DNA from: Candidatus Woesearchaeota archaeon
GTDB lineage: Archaea > Nanobdellota > Nanobdellia > Woesearchaeales > UBA10216
Assembly (NCBI GenBank): GCA_016180085.1
Contig: JACPBX010000032.1
Location: 1-22,744, forward strand
Direction: 5' to 3'
DNA: 22,744 nucleotides
Positions 734 through 21,309 of this stretch are shown piece by piece (position 1 is the stretch's first letter; each line of letters begins with the position of its first letter). The notes under the pieces were generated by a model. That model saw only the letters and a list, made by a program, of their open reading frames with translations. It did no database searches and was not told the DNA's origin. Position numbers and translations under genes: made by a program.

Positions 734-1333
734 GTGTTGTATTACCTAAAGCCGGCTTTCAGGAGGTTTTTGAGTCCTCTTAAGATGACATTAATTAAGC
801 TTCATGCAAGCCCAAATACTGTAACGTATGCCGGCTTTTTTGTATCGGTTGTTATTAGCATTATCCTTTACGAGTCAAAAAACAGCAATGCGTTACTGCT
901 GCTAATACCAGTGCTTTCATTTGCAAAACTGGCCTTGAATGCCTTGGATGGAATGTTGGCTGAAGCGTACGGATCTGCAACAAAGTTCGGAGGGGTTCTC
1001 AACGAATTTTTCGACAGGCTCTCCGACACGGCAATATTTGTGGGGCTCTCGCTAATGGAAGGCGTAAAAACTGAGCTGGGCCTAATTGCAGCTTTGACAG
1101 TCCTTTTGACAAGCTACACAGGCATTGTTGGGAAAGCTTTTGGCGGTAGCAGAAAGCATAGCGGGATAATGGGAAAGACTGAAAGGATGGCTTTCCTGGC
1201 AACAACAGCGTTGATAGTCTACTTTACGAAAATGCCTGATTTGTGGAATTACCTCCTCTACTTTATAATAGCTGGCTGCACAATAACAATCGGGTTGAGA
1301 TTTTACGCTATAAGGAGAGAACTTTCAAAATGA
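734..1333 (+). CDS. CDP-alcohol phosphatidyltransferase, YnbA-like subfamily
   Basis: NALDGMLAE...G..LNE..DRLSD variant of the CDP-alcohol phosphotransferase motif; N-terminal Y.LKP.F...L.P and PN.VT; hydrophobic. GTG start. Confidence 0.88.
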   Translation: MLYYLKPAFRRFLSPLKMTLIKLHASPNTVTYAGFFVSVVISIILYESKNSNALLLLIPVLSFAKLALNALDGMLAEAYGSATKFGGVLNEFFDRLSDTAIFVGLSLMEGVKTELGLIAALTVLLTSYTGIVGKAFGGSRKHSGIMGKTERMAFLATTALIVYFTKMPDLWNYLLYFIIAGCTITIGLRFYAIRRELSK

Positions 1334-2262
1334 CGATTCAGTTCCATGGTCTTTGGCAACCTTTTATTTTGCGGGAAGCAGTTCAATATTTCATTGGAGT
1401 TTTCGTTATCTTTACAATAGGACTCTTTGGAATTTTGCTAGTGCGAAAAGGAAAAACAAGGACAAATCTATTTGAGATATACCGCACGTGGATAATAATG
1501 GCCATAGTTTATTCTGCTTCAATAATGCTTGGCAAACTGGTTTTTTTTGCTTTACTCGTCGTTATAGCTTCGAGAGGCGTGTCAGAATTCTTCCTCGCAG
1601 CGAGAATAGGGAAAAGCTATTTCGTTCTGACGCTAATCGCAGCCGTCGCGTCCATGGTTACAGCGCTATCATCAGAAAGGCTATTCTTTTACACACCAAT
1701 AATCTTTTTTTTAGCTGCGGTTGCATTGTCAATATTCGCATTTGATGCGAAAAAACAGCTAGGCAATGCTGCGTTAGCATTGTTTGCATTTATGTGGCTT
1801 CCATTTCAGCTTGGCTTTCTACTCATATTGACAAAGAATAGCCAGTGGCAGGCAATTCTTCTCGCTACAGCAACAGCCATAGCGCTAAATGACGTCTTTT
1901 CTTACGTTACAGGCAAACTTATGAGCTCCATTGGAATAAATCAGGGAAAAATAGCTGGAAAGATTAGCACAAATAAAACGTGGCTGGGAGCTGCGGGAGG
2001 ATTTTTGGGTGCTTTACTGGGACTGCTTATAATGGCTCTGTTGCTCCTTGACCTGTCCTTGGCAAAAATATTCGCCATAGCTGCCTCAATAGCCGTGTTT
2101 TGCAACATAGGCGGCTTTGTCAACTCGTTTGTTAAAAGAAATTTAGGAATAAAAGACTTTCCGAAGCTTCTGCCTGGCCATGGGGGAATTATAGACAGGA
2201 TTGACAGCCTCGCCACAACGGCCGTGTGCCTTTACTTTTTGCAACTTGCAGGAATACTTTAG
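1330..2262 (+). CDS. Phosphatidate cytidylyltransferase (CdsA/YnbB-like, CTP_transf_1)
   Basis: ND...Y..GK, IS.NKTW.G..GG, S.VKR.LGIKD...LLPGHGGIIDRIDSL. Start moved from 1243 to ATG 1330, which overlaps the upstream TGA (ATGA coupling). Confidence 0.9.
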   Translation: MTIQFHGLWQPFILREAVQYFIGVFVIFTIGLFGILLVRKGKTRTNLFEIYRTWIIMAIVYSASIMLGKLVFFALLVVIASRGVSEFFLAARIGKSYFVLTLIAAVASMVTALSSERLFFYTPIIFFLAAVALSIFAFDAKKQLGNAALALFAFMWLPFQLGFLLILTKNSQWQAILLATATAIALNDVFSYVTGKLMSSIGINQGKIAGKISTNKTWLGAAGGFLGALLGLLIMALLLLDLSLAKIFAIAASIAVFCNIGGFVNSFVKRNLGIKDFPKLLPGHGGIIDRIDSLATTAVCLYFLQLAGIL

Positions 2263-2269
2263 AGACCCA

Positions 2270-2629
2270 TTATACATCAAGAAGGGCTACAGCAATGGCG
2301 TAATCTCCTTCATGGGCAATACTGCACTCGCACAGCCTTACCTTATGCGTTAACTTATTTAAGACTTTAATAACAGGCTTTCCGTGATTATTTTTCAAAA
2401 TCCTGACATGATGCCAGGCAATTTTGCTGCCATAGGCTTTGACAAAAGCCTCCTTGACGGCAAAAAACCCTGCAAGGCTTTCATACCTTCTTACAGGGCC
2501 TTTACTGCCAAATTGCAGAAGCTCTTCCTCTGCAAAAAGCACATTGATCGAGGCAGGTGTTCTGGAAAGAACTTTTTGAAAGCGAGAGATATTGACCAGG
2601 TCAATACCAATTTTCAGCAAACAAAGCAC
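2270..2629 (-). CDS. acpS: Holo-[acyl-carrier-protein] synthase (AcpS-type phosphopantetheinyl transferase)
   Basis: IGIDLV..RF, LAG.FAVKEAFVKA, HGKP, SIAHEGDYAIAV. The true start may be TTG at 2620, 6 nt after GAGGTG. Confidence 0.92.
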   Translation of the reverse strand: MLCLLKIGIDLVNISRFQKVLSRTPASINVLFAEEELLQFGSKGPVRRYESLAGFFAVKEAFVKAYGSKIAWHHVRILKNNHGKPVIKVLNKLTHKVRLCECSIAHEGDYAIAVALLDV

Positions 2630-2638
2630 CTCACAAAA

Positions 2639-3055
2639 CTATCTAAGCCTGAGCACTTCCATTAAGTCAATAAGCTGAGTTGGAGGACTTATAGTAATTG
2701 CTAGCAGAACCATTATTGGAGTAAGCAGGAGGTACCAGCAAAGGAAATACATAAAGAGCCTTCTGGGCCTGCTTTTTATAAGGGCCACTTTCCTCATGTA
2801 AAACAATGCCCAGACCCAAACCGGGAATGCAATCATTATCAGGGCATGCGCCATGTTAATAGGCCCCAAAATCGGGGTTAGGAATAAAAGATTGCCACTG
2901 TTAACGGCAAAATAGCCAAGCCAAGGGAACAGCTTTACCATAAATGCCAAAACAAACATGCGCTTGGATTCACCAGCATAATTTGGTTTGGGTGCAGTCT
3001 TAATTTCACTCAGTTTTGCTTCTGATTTCTTCCTAATCTGTTTTTGCTTTTTCAT
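2639..3055 (-). CDS. Uncharacterised membrane protein, paralogous to the C-terminal domain of the 3065-3895 product
   Basis: Basic N-tail followed by about 3 hydrophobic segments; tightly spaced within the minus-strand run (9-nt gaps). Confidence 0.75.
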   Translation of the reverse strand: MKKQKQIRKKSEAKLSEIKTAPKPNYAGESKRMFVLAFMVKLFPWLGYFAVNSGNLLFLTPILGPINMAHALIMIAFPVWVWALFYMRKVALIKSRPRRLFMYFLCWYLLLTPIMVLLAITISPPTQLIDLMEVLRLR

Positions 3056-3064
3056 TCACAAACC

Positions 3065-3895
3065 TCAGATGCTAAATTGTGGACCGAATTTAAGCGCGAC
3101 AATTACCATTGGAGGCGTTAGCACAAGATACCAGCAGACAAAATAAAGAGCTTTCCTGGCTGCCGCATTTTTGATTTTATGAATAAAGGGCAGGGCTATG
3201 GCGGCCGATATCCATACGGGAAAAGCTCCGGTTATAAGAAGGTGAAGCATATTTAAGGGAAAAAGGAACGGCATTTGGATAATCCAGAAAAAGAATGGAA
3301 ACAGCTTTATGCCAAAAGCCAAGACAAGCATAGAAAAGCTTTCAGAGCCGGAAGCTTCTGGAGCTGGCAGCGACAAAGAAACTTCCTTCTTGTCAAGTCC
3401 GTGCTGAACTGCTTTTTGGCTGTAAAAGTCCAACCTTTTTGAAAATTCTTGGGAAGACATTGCGGGAGAGCCTTGAGAAGGGAAAGGGTTTGTAACTTCC
3501 GAGAAGAACTCATTAACAGAGTTAGTACGTGAAGAGAATGCCAGGATGATTGAAGAAGCAAGCAGCAGAAAGCCTAGAATAATTTGAACGGGTCCAAGAA
3601 AAATCAGCTGGCCATAATACCCGCTGAAGTAGTGCCCTGCCGCAGAGTAGAAAAGGAAAACCATTGAAAAAAGGATAGAAAGTATATAACCAAACTTTTG
3701 GTTTTTAATTATTAGGAAAAGGGGAATAACCCACAGCACCGGTGAAAGGGCACGCATTAAGTGTATGCCGCTCAATGAAGGGCCGCTGCTAAGCTGGAGG
3801 TAAATCTGAGGCAGGAAAAGCAGCAACCTGAGCAGGATGAACATTACAAATAGCTTGTTTAAAAGATTTAGCAATGGCTTATCATCCTCGCCCAT
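3065..3895 (-). CDS. Uncharacterised two-domain polytopic membrane protein
   Basis: About 4 N-terminal TM segments, a soluble linker, then a C-terminal ~88-aa domain alignable to the 2639-3055 product. Confidence 0.75.
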   Translation of the reverse strand: MGEDDKPLLNLLNKLFVMFILLRLLLFLPQIYLQLSSGPSLSGIHLMRALSPVLWVIPLFLIIKNQKFGYILSILFSMVFLFYSAAGHYFSGYYGQLIFLGPVQIILGFLLLASSIILAFSSRTNSVNEFFSEVTNPFPSQGSPAMSSQEFSKRLDFYSQKAVQHGLDKKEVSLSLPAPEASGSESFSMLVLAFGIKLFPFFFWIIQMPFLFPLNMLHLLITGAFPVWISAAIALPFIHKIKNAAARKALYFVCWYLVLTPPMVIVALKFGPQFSI

Positions 3896-3907
3896 CTTGA
3901 TTTACTC

Positions 3908-4675
3908 TCAAATAAGGAATTTAAAAAACTTTGCAAAACTGACCGCTTCCAGAGAGCTGGAAGGAACAAGTGAGGAAACCTCAAAAAGGATATAAGCAAA
4001 AAATGCCATGTAAACAAAAATCAGCAACAGGTAAGTCAGAGGGCGATGATAAAGCTTGCCAAGCAAACCAAAAAGAAACCACCCTATTGAATAGAAGACG
4101 GCATAAAACACCAGAAGCCTGAAAAGCCTCACTACCAGAGATATCAGAAGAAAAATCGGCAGATTGAGGTGTTTCTGACCGGCTGTGTAGGCAAAGACCT
4201 TGAAAGGCACATTAGTGAATGGGTGGTTCACGGTTTGCCAAGCATCCTTGCTAGCGTAGAGTTTATCAGTATATTCTATCATAGGACTAGTTATAAAAGG
4301 GGATGATGAAAGAATATTTGTTGCTGCTACAGGAGATATATGACCAACGGAGTATGCTATAAAACCGCCTACAAGCGTGCCAAGAACAACAAACAGAGGA
4401 AGCTTAAAGTTGATACGCCTGGGAATAAAAACGGCTGCAAAAATAACCAAGAAATCAGGGAAAACATACCAGTACACTGCTTCGGCTGCGGCCCACACTG
4501 AAACGAAAACAGCGCCATCCCTTGATTTGAAAAAAGAGTTAAAGAAAGAAGGACTGATACCTGCCAGCTGATGTAACCCTTTAATTTTTTTAGTTATAAG
4601 TGCAAACGAGAGGAAAAGCAAAGTAACTGGCAAGACAACCAGGACTATCGCGAGTAAGAGACTTGGCACGTTCAT
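3908..4675 (-). CDS. DedA/YqaA (VTT, SNARE-associated) family membrane protein
   Basis: WAAAEA..W.V.PD, LGTLVGGFIAY.VG, PF..VPFKVF...AG, F...S...R.FR pattern. Its ATG overlaps the upstream TGA (4672-4675). Confidence 0.75.
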   Translation of the reverse strand: MNVPSLLLAIVLVVLPVTLLFLSFALITKKIKGLHQLAGISPSFFNSFFKSRDGAVFVSVWAAAEAVYWYVFPDFLVIFAAVFIPRRINFKLPLFVVLGTLVGGFIAYSVGHISPVAATNILSSSPFITSPMIEYTDKLYASKDAWQTVNHPFTNVPFKVFAYTAGQKHLNLPIFLLISLVVRLFRLLVFYAVFYSIGWFLFGLLGKLYHRPLTYLLLIFVYMAFFAYILFEVSSLVPSSSLEAVSFAKFFKFLI

Positions 4676-5556
4676 AGCGACCTTACCACTTTTTCAATTT
4701 CATTAGTAATTCTCCTGTAATCAGAGCGATTGCCAAAAATAACAGGCTTGCCGAAGGTTACTGACACAACCCCATATTTTGGCATCACACTCCCCTTAGG
4801 CAATATTGAGTCTGTCCCTCGAATCCTGACTGGAACCACAGCAACATTCAACTTGGAAACTAGAAAGCCTATACCAGGCTTAAACCTTTGAATTTTCCCA
4901 TTCTGACTACGGCTGCCTTCAGGGTAAAATAAAACGTGCCATCCTTCATTAATGAGCTTTGCTGTCCGATGCAGGCTTGTGTAAGAATTTTTCCGTGAGA
5001 AAGGGTACGCGTTCACTAATAGGGAAATAAATGAACCAAAAAAGGGGTTTCTGTACATGTAATCCTCAGCTGCAGCTACTGCCGTTCTTTTCCGAAAACT
5101 GCCGGGCAGGCTTGCAAGAATGGCTACCGTGTCAAGGTGGCTTGAATGGTTGGCAACAAAAATAACAGGTTGGCCTTTTGGAATAATCTGGAGAGCTTCT
5201 TTGTTAGTTGTGAGAACTTTCATTAAAAATCCAGCCAAAAAGAAAACGGTCCTTTGCAGGATAAAGCGGGCTGGTAATGCCATTGAACTGTGACACCACG
5301 CCCACACATACCGTTCTTTTTGCTTGCTACCAAATGGCAACTCCAAAAGCCGGGCAAGATCTCCAACTGAGGTGAATTTATTAATACGCCTCTCATCTAT
5401 CAAATTCCCAAATTCCTGCTCAATCCGGGCAACAAGCTCAATCCTATGCAGGGAATCCATTCCTAAATCGTTAACAAGAGAAGCTCTAGACTTGATTCTC
5501 CTGGCAGGAACTTCAAGAATCTGGGTCAAGATTCTACGCAATCTTCTGTTCTGCAT
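4672..5556 (-). CDS. Fusion of acyl carrier protein (N-terminal) and PlsC-like lysophospholipid acyltransferase (C-terminal)
   Basis: ACP motif LGMDSL...EL...IEQEFG with the phosphopantetheine Ser; acyltransferase blocks NHSSHLD, PFSR, YPEGSRS, FKPG, VPV.I.G. Confidence 0.92.
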   Translation of the reverse strand: MQNRRLRRILTQILEVPARRIKSRASLVNDLGMDSLHRIELVARIEQEFGNLIDERRINKFTSVGDLARLLELPFGSKQKERYVWAWCHSSMALPARFILQRTVFFLAGFLMKVLTTNKEALQIIPKGQPVIFVANHSSHLDTVAILASLPGSFRKRTAVAAAEDYMYRNPFFGSFISLLVNAYPFSRKNSYTSLHRTAKLINEGWHVLFYPEGSRSQNGKIQRFKPGIGFLVSKLNVAVVPVRIRGTDSILPKGSVMPKYGVVSVTFGKPVIFGNRSDYRRITNEIEKVVRSL

Positions 5557-5586
5557 TTTAATAAGGAAATAGCAAGTTTTAATTAG

Positions 5587-5600
5587 TTTATATATTTAAC
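5587..5600. promoter_or_regulatory. Candidate bidirectional TATA region between the ACP-acyltransferase operon and the NlpC/P60 pair
   Basis: TTTATATATTTAAC lies in a 63-nt AT-rich gap, about 20-30 nt from both start codons (5556 and 5620). Confidence 0.55.
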
Positions 5601-5619
5601 ACTACAATAGAAACAAAAA

Positions 5620-6204
5620 ATGGGTGACCTGGGCAGTTTAGTGAAAAAACTGGTGGAAGGAGATATACTTGTGGTGAGTGAGAGAGGGCTGAAGCACGCC
5701 GTAAACAGGTTTTTTGGCAGGAGCAAGTGGCACCACGTAATGCTATACATAGGCAAAGGCAAAGTCCTCGAGGTAACTCCGAGGAAAGGCTGCCACATAT
5801 CAAAGCTGGACCTGGCAAGGGGCAGCTACAAGGCATACAAGGCTGTAAGATGCAGGAAGCTTGCTGCTGAAACAAGGAGGAAAATAGCTGCGGCAGCAGT
5901 TAAACTGTTCCTGGGCAAAAAGTTCGACTGGAAACAACTGGTTAAAGTCTTTTCCAGAAGACTCTTGGACTGGAAAGGCAATAAAAGCCGTGTGGAGAAG
6001 CACGGATACGGAAACGATATTAAAGGCCTTATCTGCTCAAACCTTGTTGCAATAACATACCACATGACAGGCCATGCCATTGGCAGCAAGTGGGCACCGG
6101 AGTACATAATGCCAAGGGACTACGACATGCTGGGAACGGCTGGCGGGTTTGAAGTGGTGTTTGAAAGAAGGCTGGAAAGCGGAAGGGGCAAAAATGCGGC
6201 TTAG
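5620..6204 (+). CDS. Permuted papain-like NlpC/P60 enzyme (YiiX/YebB-like), copy 1
   Basis: GDILVV...SKWHHVMLYIG (His) precedes LICSNLV (Cys), the permuted His-then-Cys order; G..FDW; ends P.DY. Confidence 0.82.
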   Translation: MGDLGSLVKKLVEGDILVVSERGLKHAVNRFFGRSKWHHVMLYIGKGKVLEVTPRKGCHISKLDLARGSYKAYKAVRCRKLAAETRRKIAAAAVKLFLGKKFDWKQLVKVFSRRLLDWKGNKSRVEKHGYGNDIKGLICSNLVAITYHMTGHAIGSKWAPEYIMPRDYDMLGTAGGFEVVFERRLESGRGKNAA

Positions 6205-6784
6205 ACCTGAAATGAAAAGGCTGAGAGACGCCCACAACATCCTCAAAAGGCTTCGGGAAGCAGACATCATCCTCGTAAGCGAGAAAGGGCTGCTACATGA
6301 CATCAACAGGATGCTGCAAAGGAGCAAGTGGCACCACGTAATGCTATATATCGGGAATGGCCGCACAATCGAAGCCACCCCGAAAAAAGGCGCCCACATA
6401 TGCGACCTCATGTATGACCTGACAGAAAAGGAATACTTTGCCTACAAAGTCCTAAGGAATAAAAGGCTCACCAAAGCGCAAAGAAAGAAAGTGGTCAGCA
6501 TGGCACTGAAATTCTTTCTTGGCAAAAAGTTCTCCTGGGGGCAATACGCCAGAATCGTGCTTGGAAGGACGCTGCACTGGAGAAACGAGGGAAACAAAAG
6601 CCTCGTATGCAAACCTGGGCACAGGTGCAGCATGGAAAACGTGGCATGCTCCAACATGGTGGCAATGGCATATTACGAGGCTGGCCTGCCTGTAACCGAG
6701 CGCTACATGCCCGAGTACGTTGTGCCAAAGGACTATGAAACGTCAAAGGCGCTTTCCGTAGTTTCTGAAGGCAGAATAAAATGA
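6194..6784 (+). CDS. Permuted papain-like NlpC/P60 enzyme (YiiX/YebB-like), copy 2
   Basis: ADIILV...SKWHHVMLYIG, LGKKFSW, ACSNMVAMAY...G, VPKDY. Start moved from 6149 to ATG 6194, overlapping the end of copy 1. Confidence 0.82.
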   Translation: MRLRPEMKRLRDAHNILKRLREADIILVSEKGLLHDINRMLQRSKWHHVMLYIGNGRTIEATPKKGAHICDLMYDLTEKEYFAYKVLRNKRLTKAQRKKVVSMALKFFLGKKFSWGQYARIVLGRTLHWRNEGNKSLVCKPGHRCSMENVACSNMVAMAYYEAGLPVTERYMPEYVVPKDYETSKALSVVSEGRIK

Positions 6785-6998: not shown

Positions 6999-8207
6999 TT
7001 ACATTATTGGGTTGCCGCGGCACGACTGTAACCCTAATTTTCGTCGTTCAAGGTATGTTGGTTCATGTAAAAGTTTATATAAGTCGTTCATCGTTATGTA
7101 ATCCCAAATGTGCGATATTCCGAATTCTTTTCTGATGTCTTTGCCACTCGGATAATGCCCGCTTGAGATTTCTTTTTTCATATAAGTCAGAATATTTTCA
7201 ATAGCGGCTCTGAAAAGGCATTGGTCGAGTTTAGGGTTTCTTCTTCCTCCAATTTTATTCAATGGAGGAATTATGTTGGCTTCCTTGTAAATATCCAAAA
7301 CAGATTTAAAATAAGACCTAGTGTCTAACTTTAAAGCCTTATTTATGTCATGAACGTACACTTCTCTTCCTTTAATTAAATTTTCTTTAAGGTAGTCTAC
7401 GATGAGCTTTTTCTTTCTTACTTTTTCATCAGTTTCTTCATGGACTGAGGAGTCTCTTATATATTGAATTTTTTCGATTTGATCATTGCTTAAAAGCGGG
7501 AGCACATCTTCATAGAGCTTAATGCTGATACCACTAACGCCGCTAATTTTACTCTCTATCTTTGATGTTGTGGTCATTAGAATAATTTCGTGAAATCCTT
7601 GCTTAAGAAACTGTTGAAGTTGTTCAACATTCTTCTTTTTAATAGGCTCGTATTTGTTGAAGGCTTTAAGTTCTACTCCAATTAATCTTTCATTAGTATC
7701 TAAAGCAACCATATCAACGCCTTGCTCATGAATATCATTTATTTCTAATATGCTGAGATCTAACTTATAAAGAACGTCTGCAATTAGTTTGGTAAAGATT
7801 AAAGCTTTGTTACCTTTTAGGTCCTGACTATTTTTCTGTATGTATTTAATACCGGCCTGCAAATAAAATTCTTTAATACTTCTAAAGTAAGTATCCAATC
7901 TTAATTTGAATTTTTGTTCTATAAATCTTCTTGAAGGGTAATGACCTTTTTTGACCTCATTTTTCAAATAATTCAGAAGGTCTTTTCTTACGTGAACATT
8001 TAATTGTTTAGACCTGTGACGGGGGAACTTCAAAAAATCGACATTCAATTGCGAATAGATATCTTCCATATAAATGCCTTTTTGAAAGGCAAACTTAGTT
8101 CTAAGTTCTCTACAAGTTGGAAGATTGCCTTCTTTTACTCTACTTTTGACATAATCTACTATTTTCCGTTTAATTTCTGCCGAACAATTTTTTTCCATTT
8201 TCTTCAT
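6999..8207 (-). CDS. Mrr-like PD-(D/E)XK restriction-endonuclease-fold protein flanked by four helical repeats
   Basis: Central GVD-x13-ELK...V.QL...IILMTTS resembles the Mrr catalytic domain; two ~48-aa repeats lie on each side; AT-rich (hand counts of 30% GC on lines 7321 and 7681). Confidence 0.7.
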   Translation of the reverse strand: MKKMEKNCSAEIKRKIVDYVKSRVKEGNLPTCRELRTKFAFQKGIYMEDIYSQLNVDFLKFPRHRSKQLNVHVRKDLLNYLKNEVKKGHYPSRRFIEQKFKLRLDTYFRSIKEFYLQAGIKYIQKNSQDLKGNKALIFTKLIADVLYKLDLSILEINDIHEQGVDMVALDTNERLIGVELKAFNKYEPIKKKNVEQLQQFLKQGFHEIILMTTTSKIESKISGVSGISIKLYEDVLPLLSNDQIEKIQYIRDSSVHEETDEKVRKKKLIVDYLKENLIKGREVYVHDINKALKLDTRSYFKSVLDIYKEANIIPPLNKIGGRRNPKLDQCLFRAAIENILTYMKKEISSGHYPSGKDIRKEFGISHIWDYITMNDLYKLLHEPTYLERRKLGLQSCRGNPIM

Positions 8208-11217: not shown

Positions 11218-12627
11218 ATGATACACCTAAGCACCTCGCTGAAGTATTACAAAAGGGAGAACGTGCAGAAGGCCCTGATTGAGCACGGCAGGGACAAGGA
11301 AGTGGCTGCCAGGTTCAATGAGCAGTTCGGCAAAAGACCTGACATACTCACATACTCCGGTGATGTTCTTGAGCTTGCCAAGCAGGGCGCAACGTCCTTC
11401 CACTGCTCTGAGGAGCTATGGACCAACCCGCTGCTGTTGCAGCCGCAGATGCAGAAAAAAGAGCTTGACAAAATGAGGAAAGGGTGGGACCTCCTTCTGG
11501 ACGTGGATACAGACTCAAAAGACAAGGAAACCGGCTTTGAATACTCAAAAATAGCCGCAGACCTGATAGTCAAAGAACTAAAACTGCACGGCATAACAAG
11601 CGTAACCACGAAGTTTAGCGGCAACAAGGGGTTCCACATAGCAGTGCCGTGGGAAGCATTCCCGAAGGAAATCAACGGGAAAGAAACAAAAGACCTGTTT
11701 CCTGAAGCACCAAGAAAGATAGCCGCATACTTGAAAGAGCGCACGATAGCAGAGCTCGGCAGGAGGATACTGCAACACGAAAAAGGAAACTACAGGGCAA
11801 TAGCTGAGAAAACCGGCAAGGATGTCAAGGAATTCGCATATGTAAAGGCTGTTAAGGGAGGAATGGAGAGCGAGAGGAAGCTGGAGTTCAACGCAGAGCC
11901 ATTCCTTGTAGTTGATACGCTGCTCATATCATCAAGGCACATGTACAGGATGCCCTACTCGCTGCATGAAAAGTCCGGTCTGGTATCATTGCCCGTAGAT
12001 GTTGGCAACATAATGGCTTTTGACAAAAAAACGGCTTTGCCCGAAAAAGCAGTTGTGGGGCAACAGCAGTTCATGCAAAGGGCAACGGCAAAAGAAGGGG
12101 AGGCACGCAGCCTTTTCATAGCAGCATTTGACTTTGGGAAAACGTTAACAGTTAAAGTCGATGAGGAAAAGAGCGGCAGCCTTAACAGGGAATACGATGA
12201 AGTGGAAGGCAAAATCCCAGAGCAATACTTCCCGCCATGCATAAAAAAGATGCTTGAAGGCGTTGAGGATGGCAGGAAAAGGGCGCTGTTCGTTTTGATT
12301 AACTTCCTAGGCAGCTGCAACTACGGCAACGAGGAAATTGAAGCAGAAATAAAGGAATGGAACTCAAGGAATAAAGAGCCGCTGCCGCAGCTATACCTGC
12401 AATCGCAGCTAAGCTACGCGAGGCAAAAAGCGGAGAAAGTCCTGCCTCCAAACTGCAGCAACGCCAGCTACTACAAGGAGCTCGGCATAGAGTGCACGGC
12501 AGAATGCGGCACGTGCAAAAACCCGGTAGCGGAGGCCAAGCAGATTTACAGGAGAGCGATGAGGGTGGCAACCGAGCTTAAGCAACCAAAAAAGAGAGGG
12601 CGAAAAAAAGAAGACAGTAACCTTTAA
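11218..12627 (+). CDS. priSL: Fused archaeo-eukaryotic primase (PriS catalytic domain plus PriL C-terminal Fe-S domain)
   Basis: WDLLLDVD, KFSGNKGFHI, SRHMYRMPYSLHEKS; C-terminal FPPCI..ML.G..DGRKR, PPNC, C..EC..CKNP. Confidence 0.88.
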   Translation: MIHLSTSLKYYKRENVQKALIEHGRDKEVAARFNEQFGKRPDILTYSGDVLELAKQGATSFHCSEELWTNPLLLQPQMQKKELDKMRKGWDLLLDVDTDSKDKETGFEYSKIAADLIVKELKLHGITSVTTKFSGNKGFHIAVPWEAFPKEINGKETKDLFPEAPRKIAAYLKERTIAELGRRILQHEKGNYRAIAEKTGKDVKEFAYVKAVKGGMESERKLEFNAEPFLVVDTLLISSRHMYRMPYSLHEKSGLVSLPVDVGNIMAFDKKTALPEKAVVGQQQFMQRATAKEGEARSLFIAAFDFGKTLTVKVDEEKSGSLNREYDEVEGKIPEQYFPPCIKKMLEGVEDGRKRALFVLINFLGSCNYGNEEIEAEIKEWNSRNKEPLPQLYLQSQLSYARQKAEKVLPPNCSNASYYKELGIECTAECGTCKNPVAEAKQIYRRAMRVATELKQPKKRGRKKEDSNL

Positions 12628-18588: not shown

Positions 18589-21309
18589 ATGACTGATGCC
18601 GAAGTTGACTTCAACAAGATAGCCAAAAAGTGGCAGAAGAAGTGGGCAGATTCTGGAATATTCAAAGTAAGGGAAGAACCGAAGAAAAAGAAGTTTTACT
18701 GCCTGGAGATGTTTCCCTATCCGTCAGGCGCAGGACTTCACATGGGCCACGTCCGGAATTACGCCATTGGCGATTGCCATGCCCGATACAAGAGAATGCG
18801 GGGATTTAACGTTCTTTACCCTATGGGCTATGATGCATTCGGGCTGCCGGCAGAGAATGCCGCCATCAAGAACAAGATTAACCCGAAGAAGTGGACAGAG
18901 GATAATATGGCCCTGATGAAGTCACAGCAAAAACAGCTGGGCTTGAGTTATGACTGGGACAGGGAGCTGGCAACTTGCTACCCCGAATACTACGGCTGGA
19001 ACCAGTGGATATTCCTCAAAATGCTTGAAAAAGGGCTGGCCTACAAGAAAAAGGCGTTGGCAAACTGGTGCCCAAGCTGCAAAACTGTTTTGGCGAATGA
19101 GCAGGTTGTTGACGGGGGATGCTGGAGGTGCCACAGCCCTGTTGAGCAGAAGGAGCTTGAGCAGTGGTTCCTTAAAATAACGGCATACGCAGACCAGCTC
19201 CTTACAGATCTCGACAAGCTTGGAAACTGGCCTGAAAGAGTCAAGGTAATGCAGAAGAACTGGATTGGAAAGAGCGAAGGCGTAACGACAACCTTCAAGG
19301 TAAAGGACATGGATATCAAATTCAGCGTTTTTGACTCTGTCCCGCAAACCTTCATGGCCCAGACGTTCACCGTAATAGCGCCGGAGCATCCTGCCGTAAA
19401 GGAGCTTGTCAAAGGCACCAAGCATGAAAAGCAGGTCATGGAATTCGTTGAGCGCATTAAAAGAAAAAAAGCCACTGACAAGTTCGACATTGAAAAGGAC
19501 ATGGAAGGAATTTTCACAGGGCGCTATCTCGAATACCCGCTGGCCGGAGACAGGCTTCTGCCAATTTGGGTTGCCTCCTTCGTCGTGTACGAATACGGGA
19601 GCGGAGTGGTTAACTGCAGCGCGCATGACAAGCGCGACTTTGACTTTGCCAGGAAATATGAAATTCCCCTGCATCCCGTAATGCACCCACCAGATGCAAA
19701 GGAAGCGGAAAAAGTGCGCAACCTTGAATACTGCTACTACAAGGACCCCGAAGGCATTCTGGATGAGCCTGCTAAATTCAAGGGCAGAAAGTGGGGAGAT
19801 GTGCGGGAAGACATCGTCAGGCATCTCGAAAGCACAGGCTATGGCAAGAAGGAAGTTAATTACAAACTTCGCGACTGGCTCATCTCAAGGCAGAGGTACT
19901 GGGGCACACCTATTCCGGTTGTTTACTGCAAAAAGTGCGGAATTGTGGGAGTGCCTGAAAAAGAGCTGCCGGTTATGCTTCCGGAGCCAGAGAAAGTCAA
20001 ATTTACAGGCGAAGGCAATCCTCTCGACAGCTGCGGCGAGTTTGTTAACGTAAAGTGCCCGAAGTGCAAGGCTGATGCAAGGAGAGAAACAGACACGATG
20101 GACACTTTTGTAGACAGCTCATGGTATTTCCTCCGTTATTGCAGCAACAAAGAACAGAAAATGCCGTTTGACCAAAAAGCTGCTGAATACTGGATGCCTG
20201 TGGACCAGTACATTGGAGGGATAGAGCATGCTGTGATGCACCTCCTTTATGCGAGGTTCTTTACAAAGGTGCTAAGGGATTTGAAGCTGGTTGATGCGGA
20301 TGAGCCATTCAGCAACCTCCTGTGCCAGGGAATGGTGCTGAAAGACGGGGCAGTGATGAGCAAAAGCAAGGGCAATGTCGTTGACCCGAGGACGATAATA
20401 GAAAAGTTTGGACCGGATACCGCAAGGCTGTTCATACTGTTCATGGCCATGCCTGAGAAAGAGCTCGAGTGGTCGGACAAGGGCGTGGAAGGGAGCTTCA
20501 GGCTGCTAAGGAAGATTTATTCCCTGGCAACGAAGAAGCTAAGTTACGGCAACGGGAAAGGGCTGTTATCCAAAGACAAGCAAGTTCTGAGCAAGACTCA
20601 CTCGACGATAAAGAAAACAACAGAGATGGTTGAGGAATTCCGGCTGAATGCTGCAATAGGGGGCGTGATAGAACTGGTAAACGTGCTTTCAAAATACAGC
20701 GAAGGGGAAGTCAACAAGGAAGTTTACAAAGAGGCACTGCTGAATCTGACGTTGCTTGCCGCCCCATTTGCACCACACATTGCAGAGGAACTGTGGGAGA
20801 TCCAAGGCCGCAAAGGATTTGCCTCATTGCAGAACTGGCCAGAATACGAAGAAGAGAAGATAGACAAAGAAGCGGAAGCGATGGAACAGCTTGTCCACAC
20901 AACGCTTTCGGATTTCGAGACTGTGCTGCAGCTGGCGAAGATAGAAAAACCAAAAGAAGTTGTGCTCGTTGTAGCGCCAGGCTGGAAATACGAGCTGTTC
21001 AGGATACTAAAAGAGGAGCTAAAGAAAACGAGGGACCAAAGAGCTTTGATAAACACCTGCCTTGCAGAAAAGGACATTAAGCCCCACGGCCAAGAGGTGG
21101 CAAAGATTGTGCAGGCAGTGCTGAAGGACCCAGGGAAGCTGCCACAGATGATACTTGGGAAGGAAAAAGAGCAGGAGGCCTACGCGGCAGCAAAGGAAAC
21201 AATAGAGAAAGAGTACGGCGCAAAGGTAAAGGTTGAAGATGCTGAGAAGTCAAAAGAGCAGAAGGCGAGACAGGCAATGCCCGGGAAGCCTGCGATTGTT
21301 GTGAGGTGA
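18589..21309 (+). CDS. leuS: Leucine--tRNA ligase, bacterial-type core with an archaeal-type C-terminal domain
   Basis: MFPYPSG..LHMGH (HIGH), WLISRQRYWG.PIP, YIGGIEHA..HLLY.RF, VMSKSKGN (KMSKS); C-terminal A.PGKPAIVV. Confidence 0.97.
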   Translation: MTDAEVDFNKIAKKWQKKWADSGIFKVREEPKKKKFYCLEMFPYPSGAGLHMGHVRNYAIGDCHARYKRMRGFNVLYPMGYDAFGLPAENAAIKNKINPKKWTEDNMALMKSQQKQLGLSYDWDRELATCYPEYYGWNQWIFLKMLEKGLAYKKKALANWCPSCKTVLANEQVVDGGCWRCHSPVEQKELEQWFLKITAYADQLLTDLDKLGNWPERVKVMQKNWIGKSEGVTTTFKVKDMDIKFSVFDSVPQTFMAQTFTVIAPEHPAVKELVKGTKHEKQVMEFVERIKRKKATDKFDIEKDMEGIFTGRYLEYPLAGDRLLPIWVASFVVYEYGSGVVNCSAHDKRDFDFARKYEIPLHPVMHPPDAKEAEKVRNLEYCYYKDPEGILDEPAKFKGRKWGDVREDIVRHLESTGYGKKEVNYKLRDWLISRQRYWGTPIPVVYCKKCGIVGVPEKELPVMLPEPEKVKFTGEGNPLDSCGEFVNVKCPKCKADARRETDTMDTFVDSSWYFLRYCSNKEQKMPFDQKAAEYWMPVDQYIGGIEHAVMHLLYARFFTKVLRDLKLVDADEPFSNLLCQGMVLKDGAVMSKSKGNVVDPRTIIEKFGPDTARLFILFMAMPEKELEWSDKGVEGSFRLLRKIYSLATKKLSYGNGKGLLSKDKQVLSKTHSTIKKTTEMVEEFRLNAAIGGVIELVNVLSKYSEGEVNKEVYKEALLNLTLLAAPFAPHIAEELWEIQGRKGFASLQNWPEYEEEKIDKEAEAMEQLVHTTLSDFETVLQLAKIEKPKEVVLVVAPGWKYELFRILKEELKKTRDQRALINTCLAEKDIKPHGQEVAKIVQAVLKDPGKLPQMILGKEKEQEAYAAAKETIEKEYGAKVKVEDAEKSKEQKARQAMPGKPAIVVR

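Follow-up and report, generated by a model that had tools for sequence, protein, structure and literature searches.

The 22,744-nt stretch of DNA analysed here (hereafter the window), from a very small symbiotic archaeon, carries at positions 4672..5556, on the (-) strand, a gene for a 294-aa fusion of an acyl carrier protein (ACP) with a PlsC-type acyltransferase (P0001). This protein was shown to derive, by secondary loss of a domain, from the AMP-binding (FAAL-like)-ACP-PlsC 'self-loading' acyltransferases, and the seven-gene island on which it lies was shown to have been laterally acquired. A preliminary description of this DNA had presented the protein as a stand-alone ACP-acyltransferase; the gene is indeed real, intact and devoid of an adenylation domain, but it does not represent a separate lineage, being nested in the AMP-fused family and located on a foreign island. 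It is a variant of the known AMP-binding-ACP-PlsC kind.

The open reading frame begins at the ACP domain with its DSL serine and runs into an intact acyltransferase, as had been described, with only 13 further in-frame codons before the upstream stop (an open frame of 307 aa). Both domains matched their Pfam families above the cut-off: aa 4–71 matched PP-binding (PF00550; 46.1 bits, cut-off 20.8) and aa 121–245 matched Acyltransferase (PF01553; 80.3 bits, cut-off 23), corresponding to 5344..5547 and 4822..5196 on the (-) strand, respectively. Within the ACP domain Ser35 is part of the sequence LGMDSL, and the catalytic core contains N136-H137-S-S-H-L-D142 (NHSSHLD) and P212-E213-G214-S-R-S (PEGSRS), so that motif I (HX4D) and motif III ((F/Y)PEG(S/T)R) of the PlsC/LPLAT (AGPAT) enzymes are both present. 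Across 66 aligned relatives S35, N136, H137, D142, P212 and E213 were invariant, with G214 conserved in at least 90% of the sequences. The equivalog level of TIGR00530 was not reached (61 bits, cut-off 103). An AF2 model (pLDDT 93.5, pTM 0.87) displays both a four-helix ACP fold and a PlsC fold in Foldseek comparisons, with TMt values of 0.81–0.86 and an rmsd of ~1.9 against bacterial ACP structures. The best match overall was PlsC of T. maritima (5KYM, E 2.7e-11), followed by GPAT structures; this closest structural counterpart of the acyltransferase part is a stand-alone enzyme that has no carrier domain, and it shares ~19–20% sequence identity with P0001. The predicted activity of P0001 is acyl transfer to a lysolipid acceptor.

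It had also been stated that in bacteria an ACP-acyltransferase pair is commonly the C-terminal part of larger AMP-binding fusions, which agrees with the presence of an AMP domain in 149 of 200 homologues covering both domains. Among the best GTDB loci matching across both domains, nearly all had an AMP domain, either fused or split directly upstream, and the two that had none were both situated at contig ends. The fused relatives are ~820 aa in length (range about 780–890 aa), have the order AMP-binding-ACP-PlsC and are spread over DPANN archaea, CPR bacteria and further phyla, usually adjoining a gene for AcpS (12 of 13 related archaeal loci). In PMC12820801 the context FAAL plus LPAT_AGPAT_like is noted, as is one FAAL from Woesearchaeota. 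P0001 resembles these AMP-binding (FAAL/ANL)-ACP-PlsC (LPAT/AGPAT-like) fusions in its ACP-PlsC module (30–42% identity over the full length) and in its association with AcpS, which adjoins the fusion in DPANN and many CPR loci. It differs from them in having no ~530-aa adenylation domain, with three membrane proteins and CdsA and CDP-alcohol transferase genes being found instead.

To place P0001 among its relatives, a tree was constructed with FastTree from 200 sequences. This tree grouped P0001 with a metagenomic homologue (P0002, 45% identity; samples ENA ERZ27297570 and SRA SRR14366766) with a support of 99, within groups of 20 and 79 sequences, mostly fused forms, that have supports of 87 and 97, respectively, the sister group including fusions from the same archaeal order. 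As this clade nests inside the AMP-fused family, the AMP domain was lost secondarily. The two proteins retain 46 of the 61 positions conserved in the fused forms, including every catalytic one. The maintenance of these positions and of a seven-gene order in two lineages with 45% identity indicates, as judged from sequence, that selection acted on ACP-PlsC once the AMP domain was gone. A survey of architectures without an AMP domain, as proposed in the preliminary description, showed that stand-alone forms do recur elsewhere, although some are merely split from an adjoining AMP gene: at two bacterial loci a 520-aa AMP-binding gene lies directly upstream of, and overlaps, a 302-aa ACP-PlsC gene. 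Other stand-alone ACP-PlsC genes from metagenomes were not accompanied by the three membrane proteins of the island.

Two other kinds of enzyme share parts of this architecture. In Aas of Escherichia coli a HX4D PlsC-type domain re-acylates lysophospholipid from an acyl-ACP thioester, and its gene is in an operon with that of LplT, a flippase which is a lipid-supplying membrane protein. P0001 likewise has a PlsC-type HX4D domain and a membrane protein encoded in the same operon. However, in Aas the PlsC domain precedes the ANL domain and a free ACP is borrowed, whereas P0001 has a fused ACP and no ANL domain; an LplT/MFS gene is absent here, and P0001 scored 29 bits against the Aas model NF005959 (cut-off 886), placing it outside that family. 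Matches of 1391–1514 aa with PF07993 and PF03015 domains (one from Anaeromyxobacter), which are presumably enzymes of the myxobacterial ElbD type for ether lipids (ANL-ACP-reductase-AGPAT, ~1400 aa), possess a C-terminal ACP-PlsC part ~30% identical to P0001, which itself lacks their ANL and reductase domains.

The island spans ~4.8 kb (734..5556, both strands) between the gene for Hef and a pair of NlpC/P60 genes, and consists of genes for a phosphatidylinositol-phosphate-synthase-like transferase, a CdsA-like protein, AcpS, three membrane proteins and ACP-PlsC. Its GC content is 42.6% compared to 48.7% for the genome, a value as low being found in only 1.3% of 4.8-kb windows. In four congeners the order is Hef-NlpC-NlpC-HtpX-TFE with nothing between Hef and NlpC. 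The right edge of the island is an AT-rich intergenic region of 63 nt (5557..5619), a presumed promoter with no coding remnant, which leads from ACP-PlsC directly into the conserved neighbouring gene. The contig of P0002 carries these seven genes in an identical order. On this contig they are flanked by partial genes of 68 and 71 aa, the strands of which would be compatible with a Hef/NlpC insertion site.

The ACP-PlsC gene belongs to a tightly spaced run of five genes (intergenic gaps of -4 to 12 nt) of which the last, as had been noted, encodes AcpS. This AcpS-type holo-ACP synthase (119 aa; 2270..2629, (-) strand) matched PF01648 with 51.8 bits and TIGR00516 with 64.2 bits (cut-off 59.8). 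The ACP domain of P0001 was the sole PP-binding match in the genome, and 4'-phosphopantetheinylation of its Ser35 is predicted, with no other client of the co-operonic AcpS found in the genome. The retention of AcpS in a genome with a single ACP argues that the phosphopantetheine thiol arm is in use. Convergent with the operon lies a CdsA-type CDP-diglyceride synthase-like gene (1330..2262, (+) strand; PF01148, 138 bits), the ATG of which overlaps the stop codon of the gene upstream. The latter encodes a CDP-alcohol phosphatidyltransferase (734..1333, (+) strand; PF01066, 36.7 bits) resembling archaetidylinositol- and phosphatidylinositol-phosphate synthases (NF040950, 111 bits, under the cut-off of 180).

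Between ACP-PlsC and AcpS are the genes for the three membrane proteins. The first (255 aa; 3908..4675, (-) strand) has ~6 hydrophobic segments by hydropathy, and there is a 4-nt overlap between its start and the stop of ACP-PlsC. It had no Pfam match at E<=10, the DedA/VTT family (PF09335) included. Embedding-based comparison with Atlas gave values of 0.91–0.94 to unnamed clusters, one of which has VTT_dom in 10% of its members, a weak lead towards a DedA/VTT-like identity; a single-sequence AF2 model was unusable (pLDDT 55). The second, an orphan of 276 aa with ~7 hydrophobic segments (3065..3895, (-) strand), had one homologue among 5.8 billion proteins, namely P0337 (52% identity) on the contig of P0002, with no counterpart in 29 relatives, GTDB contigs or JGI metagenomes and no lead from Atlas (0.78). 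Its C-terminal ~100 aa are paralogous to the third protein, an orphan of 138 aa (2639..3055, (-) strand), with 39% identity (alignment A2) and an intragenomic match of 63 bits. Within the hydrophobic segments of the 138-aa protein, residues N, H, C, W, Y and T do not vary. All three accompany the AMP-less form in two of two cases and were not found within ~10 kb of 13 AMP-fused loci. Pfam searches of the membrane proteins at E<=10 were negative. As none has a recognisable family or fold, a role for these proteins is suggested by co-occurrence in two loci only.

No AMP-binding or fatty acid synthesis (FAS) domain was detected in any ORF of the window, in agreement with the preliminary description, and a frameshifted adenylation-domain remnant upstream, which would have spoken against it, was not found by tblastn with 120 AMP-binding domains (E<=10), the sole match being an ACP overlap within the query cut itself. 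The search for an acyl-ACP synthetase elsewhere gave a similar result, with neither PF00501 nor the 120 tblastn queries revealing an ANL enzyme in the genome, which is 82.8% complete. Weak repeated tblastn matches on contig C44 were dismissed as chance; they lie inside a 649-aa ORF which, by its sequence, is presumably a DNA ligase. The site occupied in congeners by a full AMP-ACP-PlsC cassette is contiguous and empty here, with two convergent genes 1 nt apart (contig C31). Searches of the same genome for PlsX, PlsY, FabD, FabZ and FabH were negative, and those for the PlsX and PlsY families thus revealed no G3P acyltransferase. The genome likewise yielded neither patatin nor a member of the archaeal DPCK family (DUF359).

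As an adenylating enzyme is missing from both the island and the assembled genome, it is proposed that the arm is charged without ATP. AcpS would place a phosphopantetheine arm on Ser35, and this arm would deliver an acyl thioester to the adjacent HX4D active site, where the PlsC domain would esterify either lyso-phosphatidate or a lysolipid. Conversion of the product to an inositol-phosphate lipid by CdsA and the CDP-alcohol transferase could follow. The least certain step is the charging itself, which may take place through exchange of acyl groups with acyl lipids that are already present and probably come from the host. PlsC working in reverse on the tethered thiol could charge the arm; the three membrane proteins could also do so, or could supply lipid. 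Charging of the tethered thiol by ATP-independent acyl exchange, possibly aided by the three orphan membrane proteins, is a plausible reading of the loading step, if one held at somewhat less than even confidence. The fuller proposal, in which PlsC, alone or with these proteins, acts as an ATP- and CoA-independent 'tethered-thiol transacylase' moving acyl chains from host phospholipid to its own arm and then to symbiont lysolipids, is more speculative and on balance doubtful. We know of no tethered phosphopantetheine described in such a role in LPLAT reversal; reverse LPLAT activity has, to our knowledge, been described for CoA-using eukaryotic enzymes and not for an ACP-tethered bacterial or archaeal PlsC. 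PMC5485470 (citing Yamashita 2001 and 2003) gives a precedent in which the reversal of an LPLAT forms a thioester from phospholipid. The CoA-dependent transacylation treated in that text (the reverse and forward reactions of the AGPAT family) and tafazzin offer an analogy only, namely an ATP-independent acyl thioester from phospholipid (PMC5485470); these eukaryotic systems use free CoA or no cofactor, whereas P0001 has a tethered ACP.

Because the genome is only 82.8% complete, an ANL acyl-ACP synthetase or FAAL could lie in the ~17% that is unassembled and act in trans, ACP-PlsC then being one half of a split system. Split forms are known from the two bacterial loci above, and further genera of this family do have stand-alone ANL genes. 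In those split forms, however, the ligase adjoins ACP-PlsC in the same operon, while none is present in the operon here or on the contig of P0002. Furthermore, a stand-alone ANL gene was found in none of nine congeners, the only ANL genes of which are those of the fused cassette, and the emptiness of the intact cassette site together with the negative search with 120 AMP domains makes a ligase in trans unlikely.

A similarly low likelihood is attached to an ACP that is no longer an acyl donor carrier and has a structural or regulatory function. The PlsC domain would then use, for example, scavenged acyl-CoA, as PlsC-family enzymes can, or would act like tafazzin, a member of the PlsC superfamily that transacylates without a cofactor. 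Chain T of a complex I assembly intermediate (7ZKQ_T) ranks fourth in the fold search; this intermediate contains tafazzin, the chain being unnamed in the search output. Against this, neither Ser35 nor the ACP motif around it varies, and both copies of the island keep a dedicated AcpS without another visible client.

The genome also contains, on contig C14 outside the window, an intact FabF-type ketoacyl-ACP synthase (KAS), the lone FAS-type gene found (387 bits to KAS II of Bacillus subtilis; NF005589, 457 bits, cut-off 387; Cys/His/His motifs kept). FabF requires an ACP. No PP-binding domain other than that of P0001 was found, so that the fused ACP might serve as carrier for a minimal or unconventional condensing system which makes or extends acyl-ACP and hands it to PlsC. 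This was judged improbable. The 83%-complete genome yielded no FabD, FabH, FabZ/FabA or PlsX, which leaves FabF without a complete type II FAS set, and the gene is isolated among ribosomal protein genes. Two SDRs considered as FabG fell below the FabG equivalog cut-offs and are generic. FabF was also rejected as a general partner of fused ACPs, with no co-occurrence across 401 genomes of the phylum: KAS was present in 17 of these, only two of which, the congener G367 and the genome studied here, had an ACP-PlsC-type gene as well.

The preliminary description had pointed to the two neighbouring NlpC/P60 enzymes as candidate loaders. These permuted (YaeF/YiiX-like) proteins would strip acyl chains from phospholipid as Cys-thioesters and pass them to the ACP. 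Their genes diverge from the operon across the 63 nt, the permuted NlpC/P60 group includes the LRAT/PLAAT acyltransferases, and in G367 a homologue lies ~2.4 kb upstream of the AcpS-AMP-ACP-PlsC cassette. However, the Pfam matches of the pair reach the gathering score marginally at best, and its GC content of 49% is typical of the genome and not of the island. As the four island-free congeners keep Hef-NlpC-NlpC, followed by HtpX as the ancestral order, the neighbourhood is incidental; the enzymes are ancestral residents of the insertion site, present in congeners with no ACP-PlsC at all (G406 and G407). Synteny and GC content together rule the pair out as a co-transferred component of the system, and its action as loader is considered quite improbable. 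Slightly less probable still is a decaying, truncated cassette without function, for which the island edge 63 nt upstream of the start codon and the lack of a detected loader could be cited, but in both copies, which are 45% identical, the ORFs are full-length, every catalytic residue is present, the translational coupling is kept and the order of the seven genes is complete, and the terminal branch of P0001 is of ordinary length (0.53; median 0.56).

DPANN archaea and CPR bacteria are mostly unable to make lipids, and the compact cassette of AcpS and FAAL-ACP-PlsC occurs patchily in their reduced genomes. One lineage has swapped this cassette for a foreign island on which the acyltransferase retains its carrier arm with no visible means of charging it, and to which the obvious local candidates, the NlpC/P60 genes, adjoin by accident of insertion. 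P0001 is small and is predicted in silico to fold confidently. Should the unassembled part of the genome prove to encode a ligase, the case would be an ordinary one. If the reading as a tethered-thiol transacylase is instead correct, the island would amount to a self-contained cassette for retailoring lipids, one that moves between DPANN archaea and takes the place of the ATP-dependent FAAL-ACP-PlsC scavenging module. An arm charged without ATP would represent a new use of a carrier protein and would provide an energy-poor symbiont with a cheap means of remodelling stolen lipids.

The ORF at 4672–5556 (minus strand) encodes a 294-aa ACP-PlsC fusion (P0001) with a PP-binding domain at residues 4–71 and a PlsC-type Acyltransferase domain at residues 121–245, both well over the Pfam cut-offs. 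The motifs LGMDSL (Ser35), NHSSHLD (H137, D142) and YPEGSRS are present, and Ser35, N136, H137, D142, P212 and E213 are invariant across an alignment of 66 sequences. An AlphaFold model built from this alignment (pLDDT 93.5, pTM 0.87) resembles the T. maritima PlsC 5KYM in its acyltransferase part (E 2.7e-11) and bacterial ACPs in its N-terminal part (rmsd ~1.9). The intact DSL serine and acyltransferase motifs read from the sequence in the preliminary description are thereby confirmed, as is the AcpS gene placed in the same run, which closes a tight operon at 2270–2629. This operon begins with the ACP-PlsC gene, followed by genes for membrane proteins of 255, 276 and 138 aa and then AcpS, in which neighbouring genes overlap by up to 4 nt or are separated by at most 12 nt. 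No PP-binding domain other than the fused ACP was found in the assembled genome (1.0 Mb, 45 contigs, completeness 82.8%, contamination 0.5%), of which the window is contig C18. The DNA of the window is archaeal; its genes include TFE and a Hef-type ERCC4 nuclease as well as an S13-S4-S11-RpoD-L18e-L13-S9 cluster and a fused PriS-PriL primase (11218–12627, plus strand) with the small- and large-subunit domains in a single 469-aa protein; a LeuRS gene with the PF13603 editing domain lies at 18589–21309 (plus strand). The genomes ranked within the same order act as a single DPANN group, and a Candidatus Woesearchaeota record holds a related gene (L086). No member of the archaeal dephospho-CoA kinase family DUF359 was detected in this genome or in six relatives, so the CoA needed by AcpS may have to be scavenged.

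Homologues were collected from 1.84 billion representative sequences, scanned in full with HMMER, and from two indexed searches. The closest relatives of P0001 are overwhelmingly proteins of ~780–890 aa with the order AMP-binding, PP-binding, Acyltransferase, to the C-terminus of which P0001 corresponds. Among 200 homologues covering both domains, 149 were AMP-fused, 37 were contig fragments and 14 were short forms starting with Met. At the best 80 loci of GTDB species genomes, each match spanning ACP and PlsC had an AMP domain upstream, either in frame or as an adjacent overlapping gene, with two exceptions, both at contig ends. The expectation that this pair is commonly the C-terminal part of AMP-binding fusions was therefore borne out. 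These loci belong to Chloroflexota, Patescibacteria/CPR, TM6, Omnitrophota, Acidobacteriota, Planctomycetota, Spirochaetia and DPANN archaea. Within a 401-genome sample of the phylum, the long form is present in 14 genomes besides the source genome, with full ORFs of 731–846 aa verified in 12 of them; that of G234 is interrupted by a contig end and G244 has an open frame of 834 aa. AcpS adjoins the fusion at 12 of the 13 loci examined, and the kind already known is accordingly a self-contained module of AcpS and a FAAL-like-ACP-PlsC protein, FAAL-like referring to the AMP-binding domain. This module looks designed for activating a free fatty acid, keeping it bound to a carrier of the module itself and transferring it to a lysolipid as an ester. 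In architecture the module is a relative of Aas of E. coli, but P0001 scores far below the cut-off of the Aas equivalog model. One paper mentions a FAAL with LPAT_AGPAT_like context as well as one FAAL from Woesearchaeota (PMC12820801); no functional study was found in the searchable literature. It should also be noted that cassettes of AcpS and the fusion are frequently found in genomes of CPR/Patescibacteria, TM6 and DPANN (L024, L071, L078–L102), and that the same fusion occurs without adjacent AcpS in the free-living Acidobacteriota and Spirochaetia. Stand-alone PlsC-like genes of ~200–235 aa recur as tandem pairs in many related DPANN genomes (e.g., G346:C2:54304–55515 and G274:C33:38785–40006), and the source genome has one of this type (206 aa, C4:4044–4664).

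No trace of a frameshifted adenylation domain was found upstream of P0001, where the frame is open for just 13 codons past the ATG and the next gene begins after 63 nt; 120 AMP-domain queries also gave no match in the genome. PF00501 had no match in the assembly, with 17% of the genome unseen and a control detected in 12 of 14 reference genomes, and neither approach revealed a conventional acyl-ACP synthetase. Three congeners (G367, G401 and G408) do encode a long fusion, which represents a different lineage of the family given its identity of just 34–38% to P0001. Two convergent genes flank the AcpS-fusion pair of G367 (C13; L034:7836–10633); their orthologues are 1 nt apart on contig C31 (1–2080) of the source genome, so that the genus-type cassette is truly absent there rather than hidden by an assembly gap. 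The cassette is a clean presence/absence polymorphism within one genus. The fusion without an activating domain is real, and the negative evidence is stronger than could be known from the window. A ligase encoded in the unseen 17% would offer a simple source of acyl groups; however, the cassette site is contiguous and empty, and no stand-alone ligase of the ANL adenylating superfamily was found in nine congeners, whose only ANL genes are the fused cassette, which makes this explanation unlikely.

The protein retains the thiol-arm machinery, and the assembled genome contains no recognisable loader. It is proposed that AcpS would convert the ACP domain to its holo form, and that the tethered phosphopantetheine, in place of CoA, would be loaded without ATP by exchanging acyl groups with acyl lipids already present, which is the favoured route. 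The arm would then pass the thioester-bound acyl group to the HX4D site of the same polypeptide, and the product could enter the adjacent CdsA-like and PI-phosphate-synthase-like enzymes. Such loading is chemically precedented, as CoA-dependent transacylation has been ascribed to AGPAT-family acyltransferases running in reverse and then forward, with acyl-CoA formed from phospholipid without ATP (PMC5485470). The proposal as a whole, loading by exchange included, is tentative and stops somewhat short of being probable, and novelty of the loading step is only inferred. That the ACP domain no longer carries the acyl donor is as doubtful as the hidden ligase. PlsX, PlsY, FabD, FabH and FabZ/A were not found in the 82.8%-complete genome. 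The reported absence of adenylation and FAS genes held for the window, and that of the AMP-binding domain also for the assembled genome, which outside the window does carry one FAS-type gene, an intact and typical FabF (KAS II) alone among ribosomal protein genes on contig C14 (11941–13203, minus strand; L039:997–2259), which scores 387 bits against B. subtilis KAS II, passes NF005589 and keeps its Cys/His/His motifs. An intact FabF in a genome whose only PP-binding domain found is the fused ACP could indicate a FabF-linked route. However, 17 of the 401 genomes have a lone KAS gene of this type, and these genes do not track ACP-PlsC genes, the two overlapping just in G367 and the source genome, and this minor alternative is improbable.

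Loading by acyl exchange was also weighed against involvement of the neighbouring tandem permuted NlpC/P60 (C92-like) pair (5620–6784, plus strand). Four congeners share the order Hef-NlpC/P60-NlpC/P60-HtpX-TFE-Toprim-primase, with Hef directly followed by the NlpC/P60 pair, and it is exactly at this junction that the source genome has an insertion of seven genes (734–5556). Each of the seven has a GC content of 41–43.5%, with flanks at 49–50% and the genome at 48.7%, and only 1.3% of the 4.8-kb windows of the genome are as low; by composition and position, the island is evidently foreign. A Mrr-like nuclease gene of 32.8% GC (6999–8207, minus strand) is a further insertion seen in this genome only; it separates the second NlpC/P60 gene from HtpX, which are directly adjacent in the congeners. 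The pair is kept directly after Hef in at least four congeners (L064–L067, identity 44–79%) and is therefore a stable genus-level feature independent of any ACP. Two of these, G406 and G407, have the pair and no ACP-PlsC gene was found in them, so it is neither an island component nor ACP-dependent. The partnership in acyl loading suggested earlier was not borne out; the NlpC/P60 genes are incidental neighbours in an ancestral order and are very improbable loaders. A lone NlpC/P60 homologue lies ~2.4 kb upstream of the AcpS-fusion cassette of G367.

A survey of ACP-PlsC proteins lacking the AMP-binding domain showed that some stand-alone forms recur (P0243, P0204 and P0244) and that others (P0248 and P0311) are merely split from an AMP gene immediately upstream; two bacterial loci have a 520-aa AMP gene overlapping a 302-aa ACP-PlsC gene by 14 nt. 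In its bacterial context, P0243 is preceded by AcpS with no ligase close by, and no ligase was seen within the contig stretches around P0204 and P0244. On the ENA contig of P0244, a gene for a patatin-like phospholipase comes 430 nt after the ACP-PlsC gene, which hints at a possible deacylation-reacylation unit. Two further stand-alone forms are located at contig ends. The AMP-less architecture is therefore recurrent but rare. A tree of 200 ACP-PlsC modules paired P0001 with P0002, a metagenomic homologue of 296 aa and 45% identity (support 99), within a 20-member group (support 87) and a 79-member group (support 97), both mainly AMP-fused; the neighbouring clade includes fusions of three same-order genomes. 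The tree was rooted at its midpoint, and the nested position rests on the breadth of fused forms to both sides. The 5.4-kb P0002 contig carries the same seven genes as the island, namely ACP-PlsC, 252-aa, 276-aa and 138-aa proteins and AcpS, then convergent CdsA-like and CDP-alcohol-transferase genes. P0001 and P0002 both retain 46 of 61 positions at least 80% conserved among fused forms, with catalytic residues unsubstituted. By its place in the tree the AMP-less form is derived; two copies this diverged yet intact and syntenic indicate selection and speak against a recent pseudogene, and gene decay is the least probable explanation.

The three membrane proteins had no Pfam match, even at E ≤ 10. 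A search of 5.8 billion proteins gave a single homologue of the 276-aa protein, encoded on the P0002 contig; 29 relatives, the GTDB contigs and the JGI metagenomes yielded none, the contig scans being pattern-based and of limited sensitivity. The 138-aa protein duplicates the C-terminal domain of the 276-aa protein, N, H, C, W, Y and T being invariant within hydrophobic segments, and the 255-aa protein gave a weak embedding-based lead to DedA. As these proteins accompany the AMP-less form in both cases and their genes were not found near any of the 13 AMP-fused loci, we infer from these two loci that they are the best candidates for compensating the lost AMP domain or for delivering lipid. P0001 belongs to a known but so far uncharacterised family as a variant that has lost a domain, and it is carried by a mobile island.
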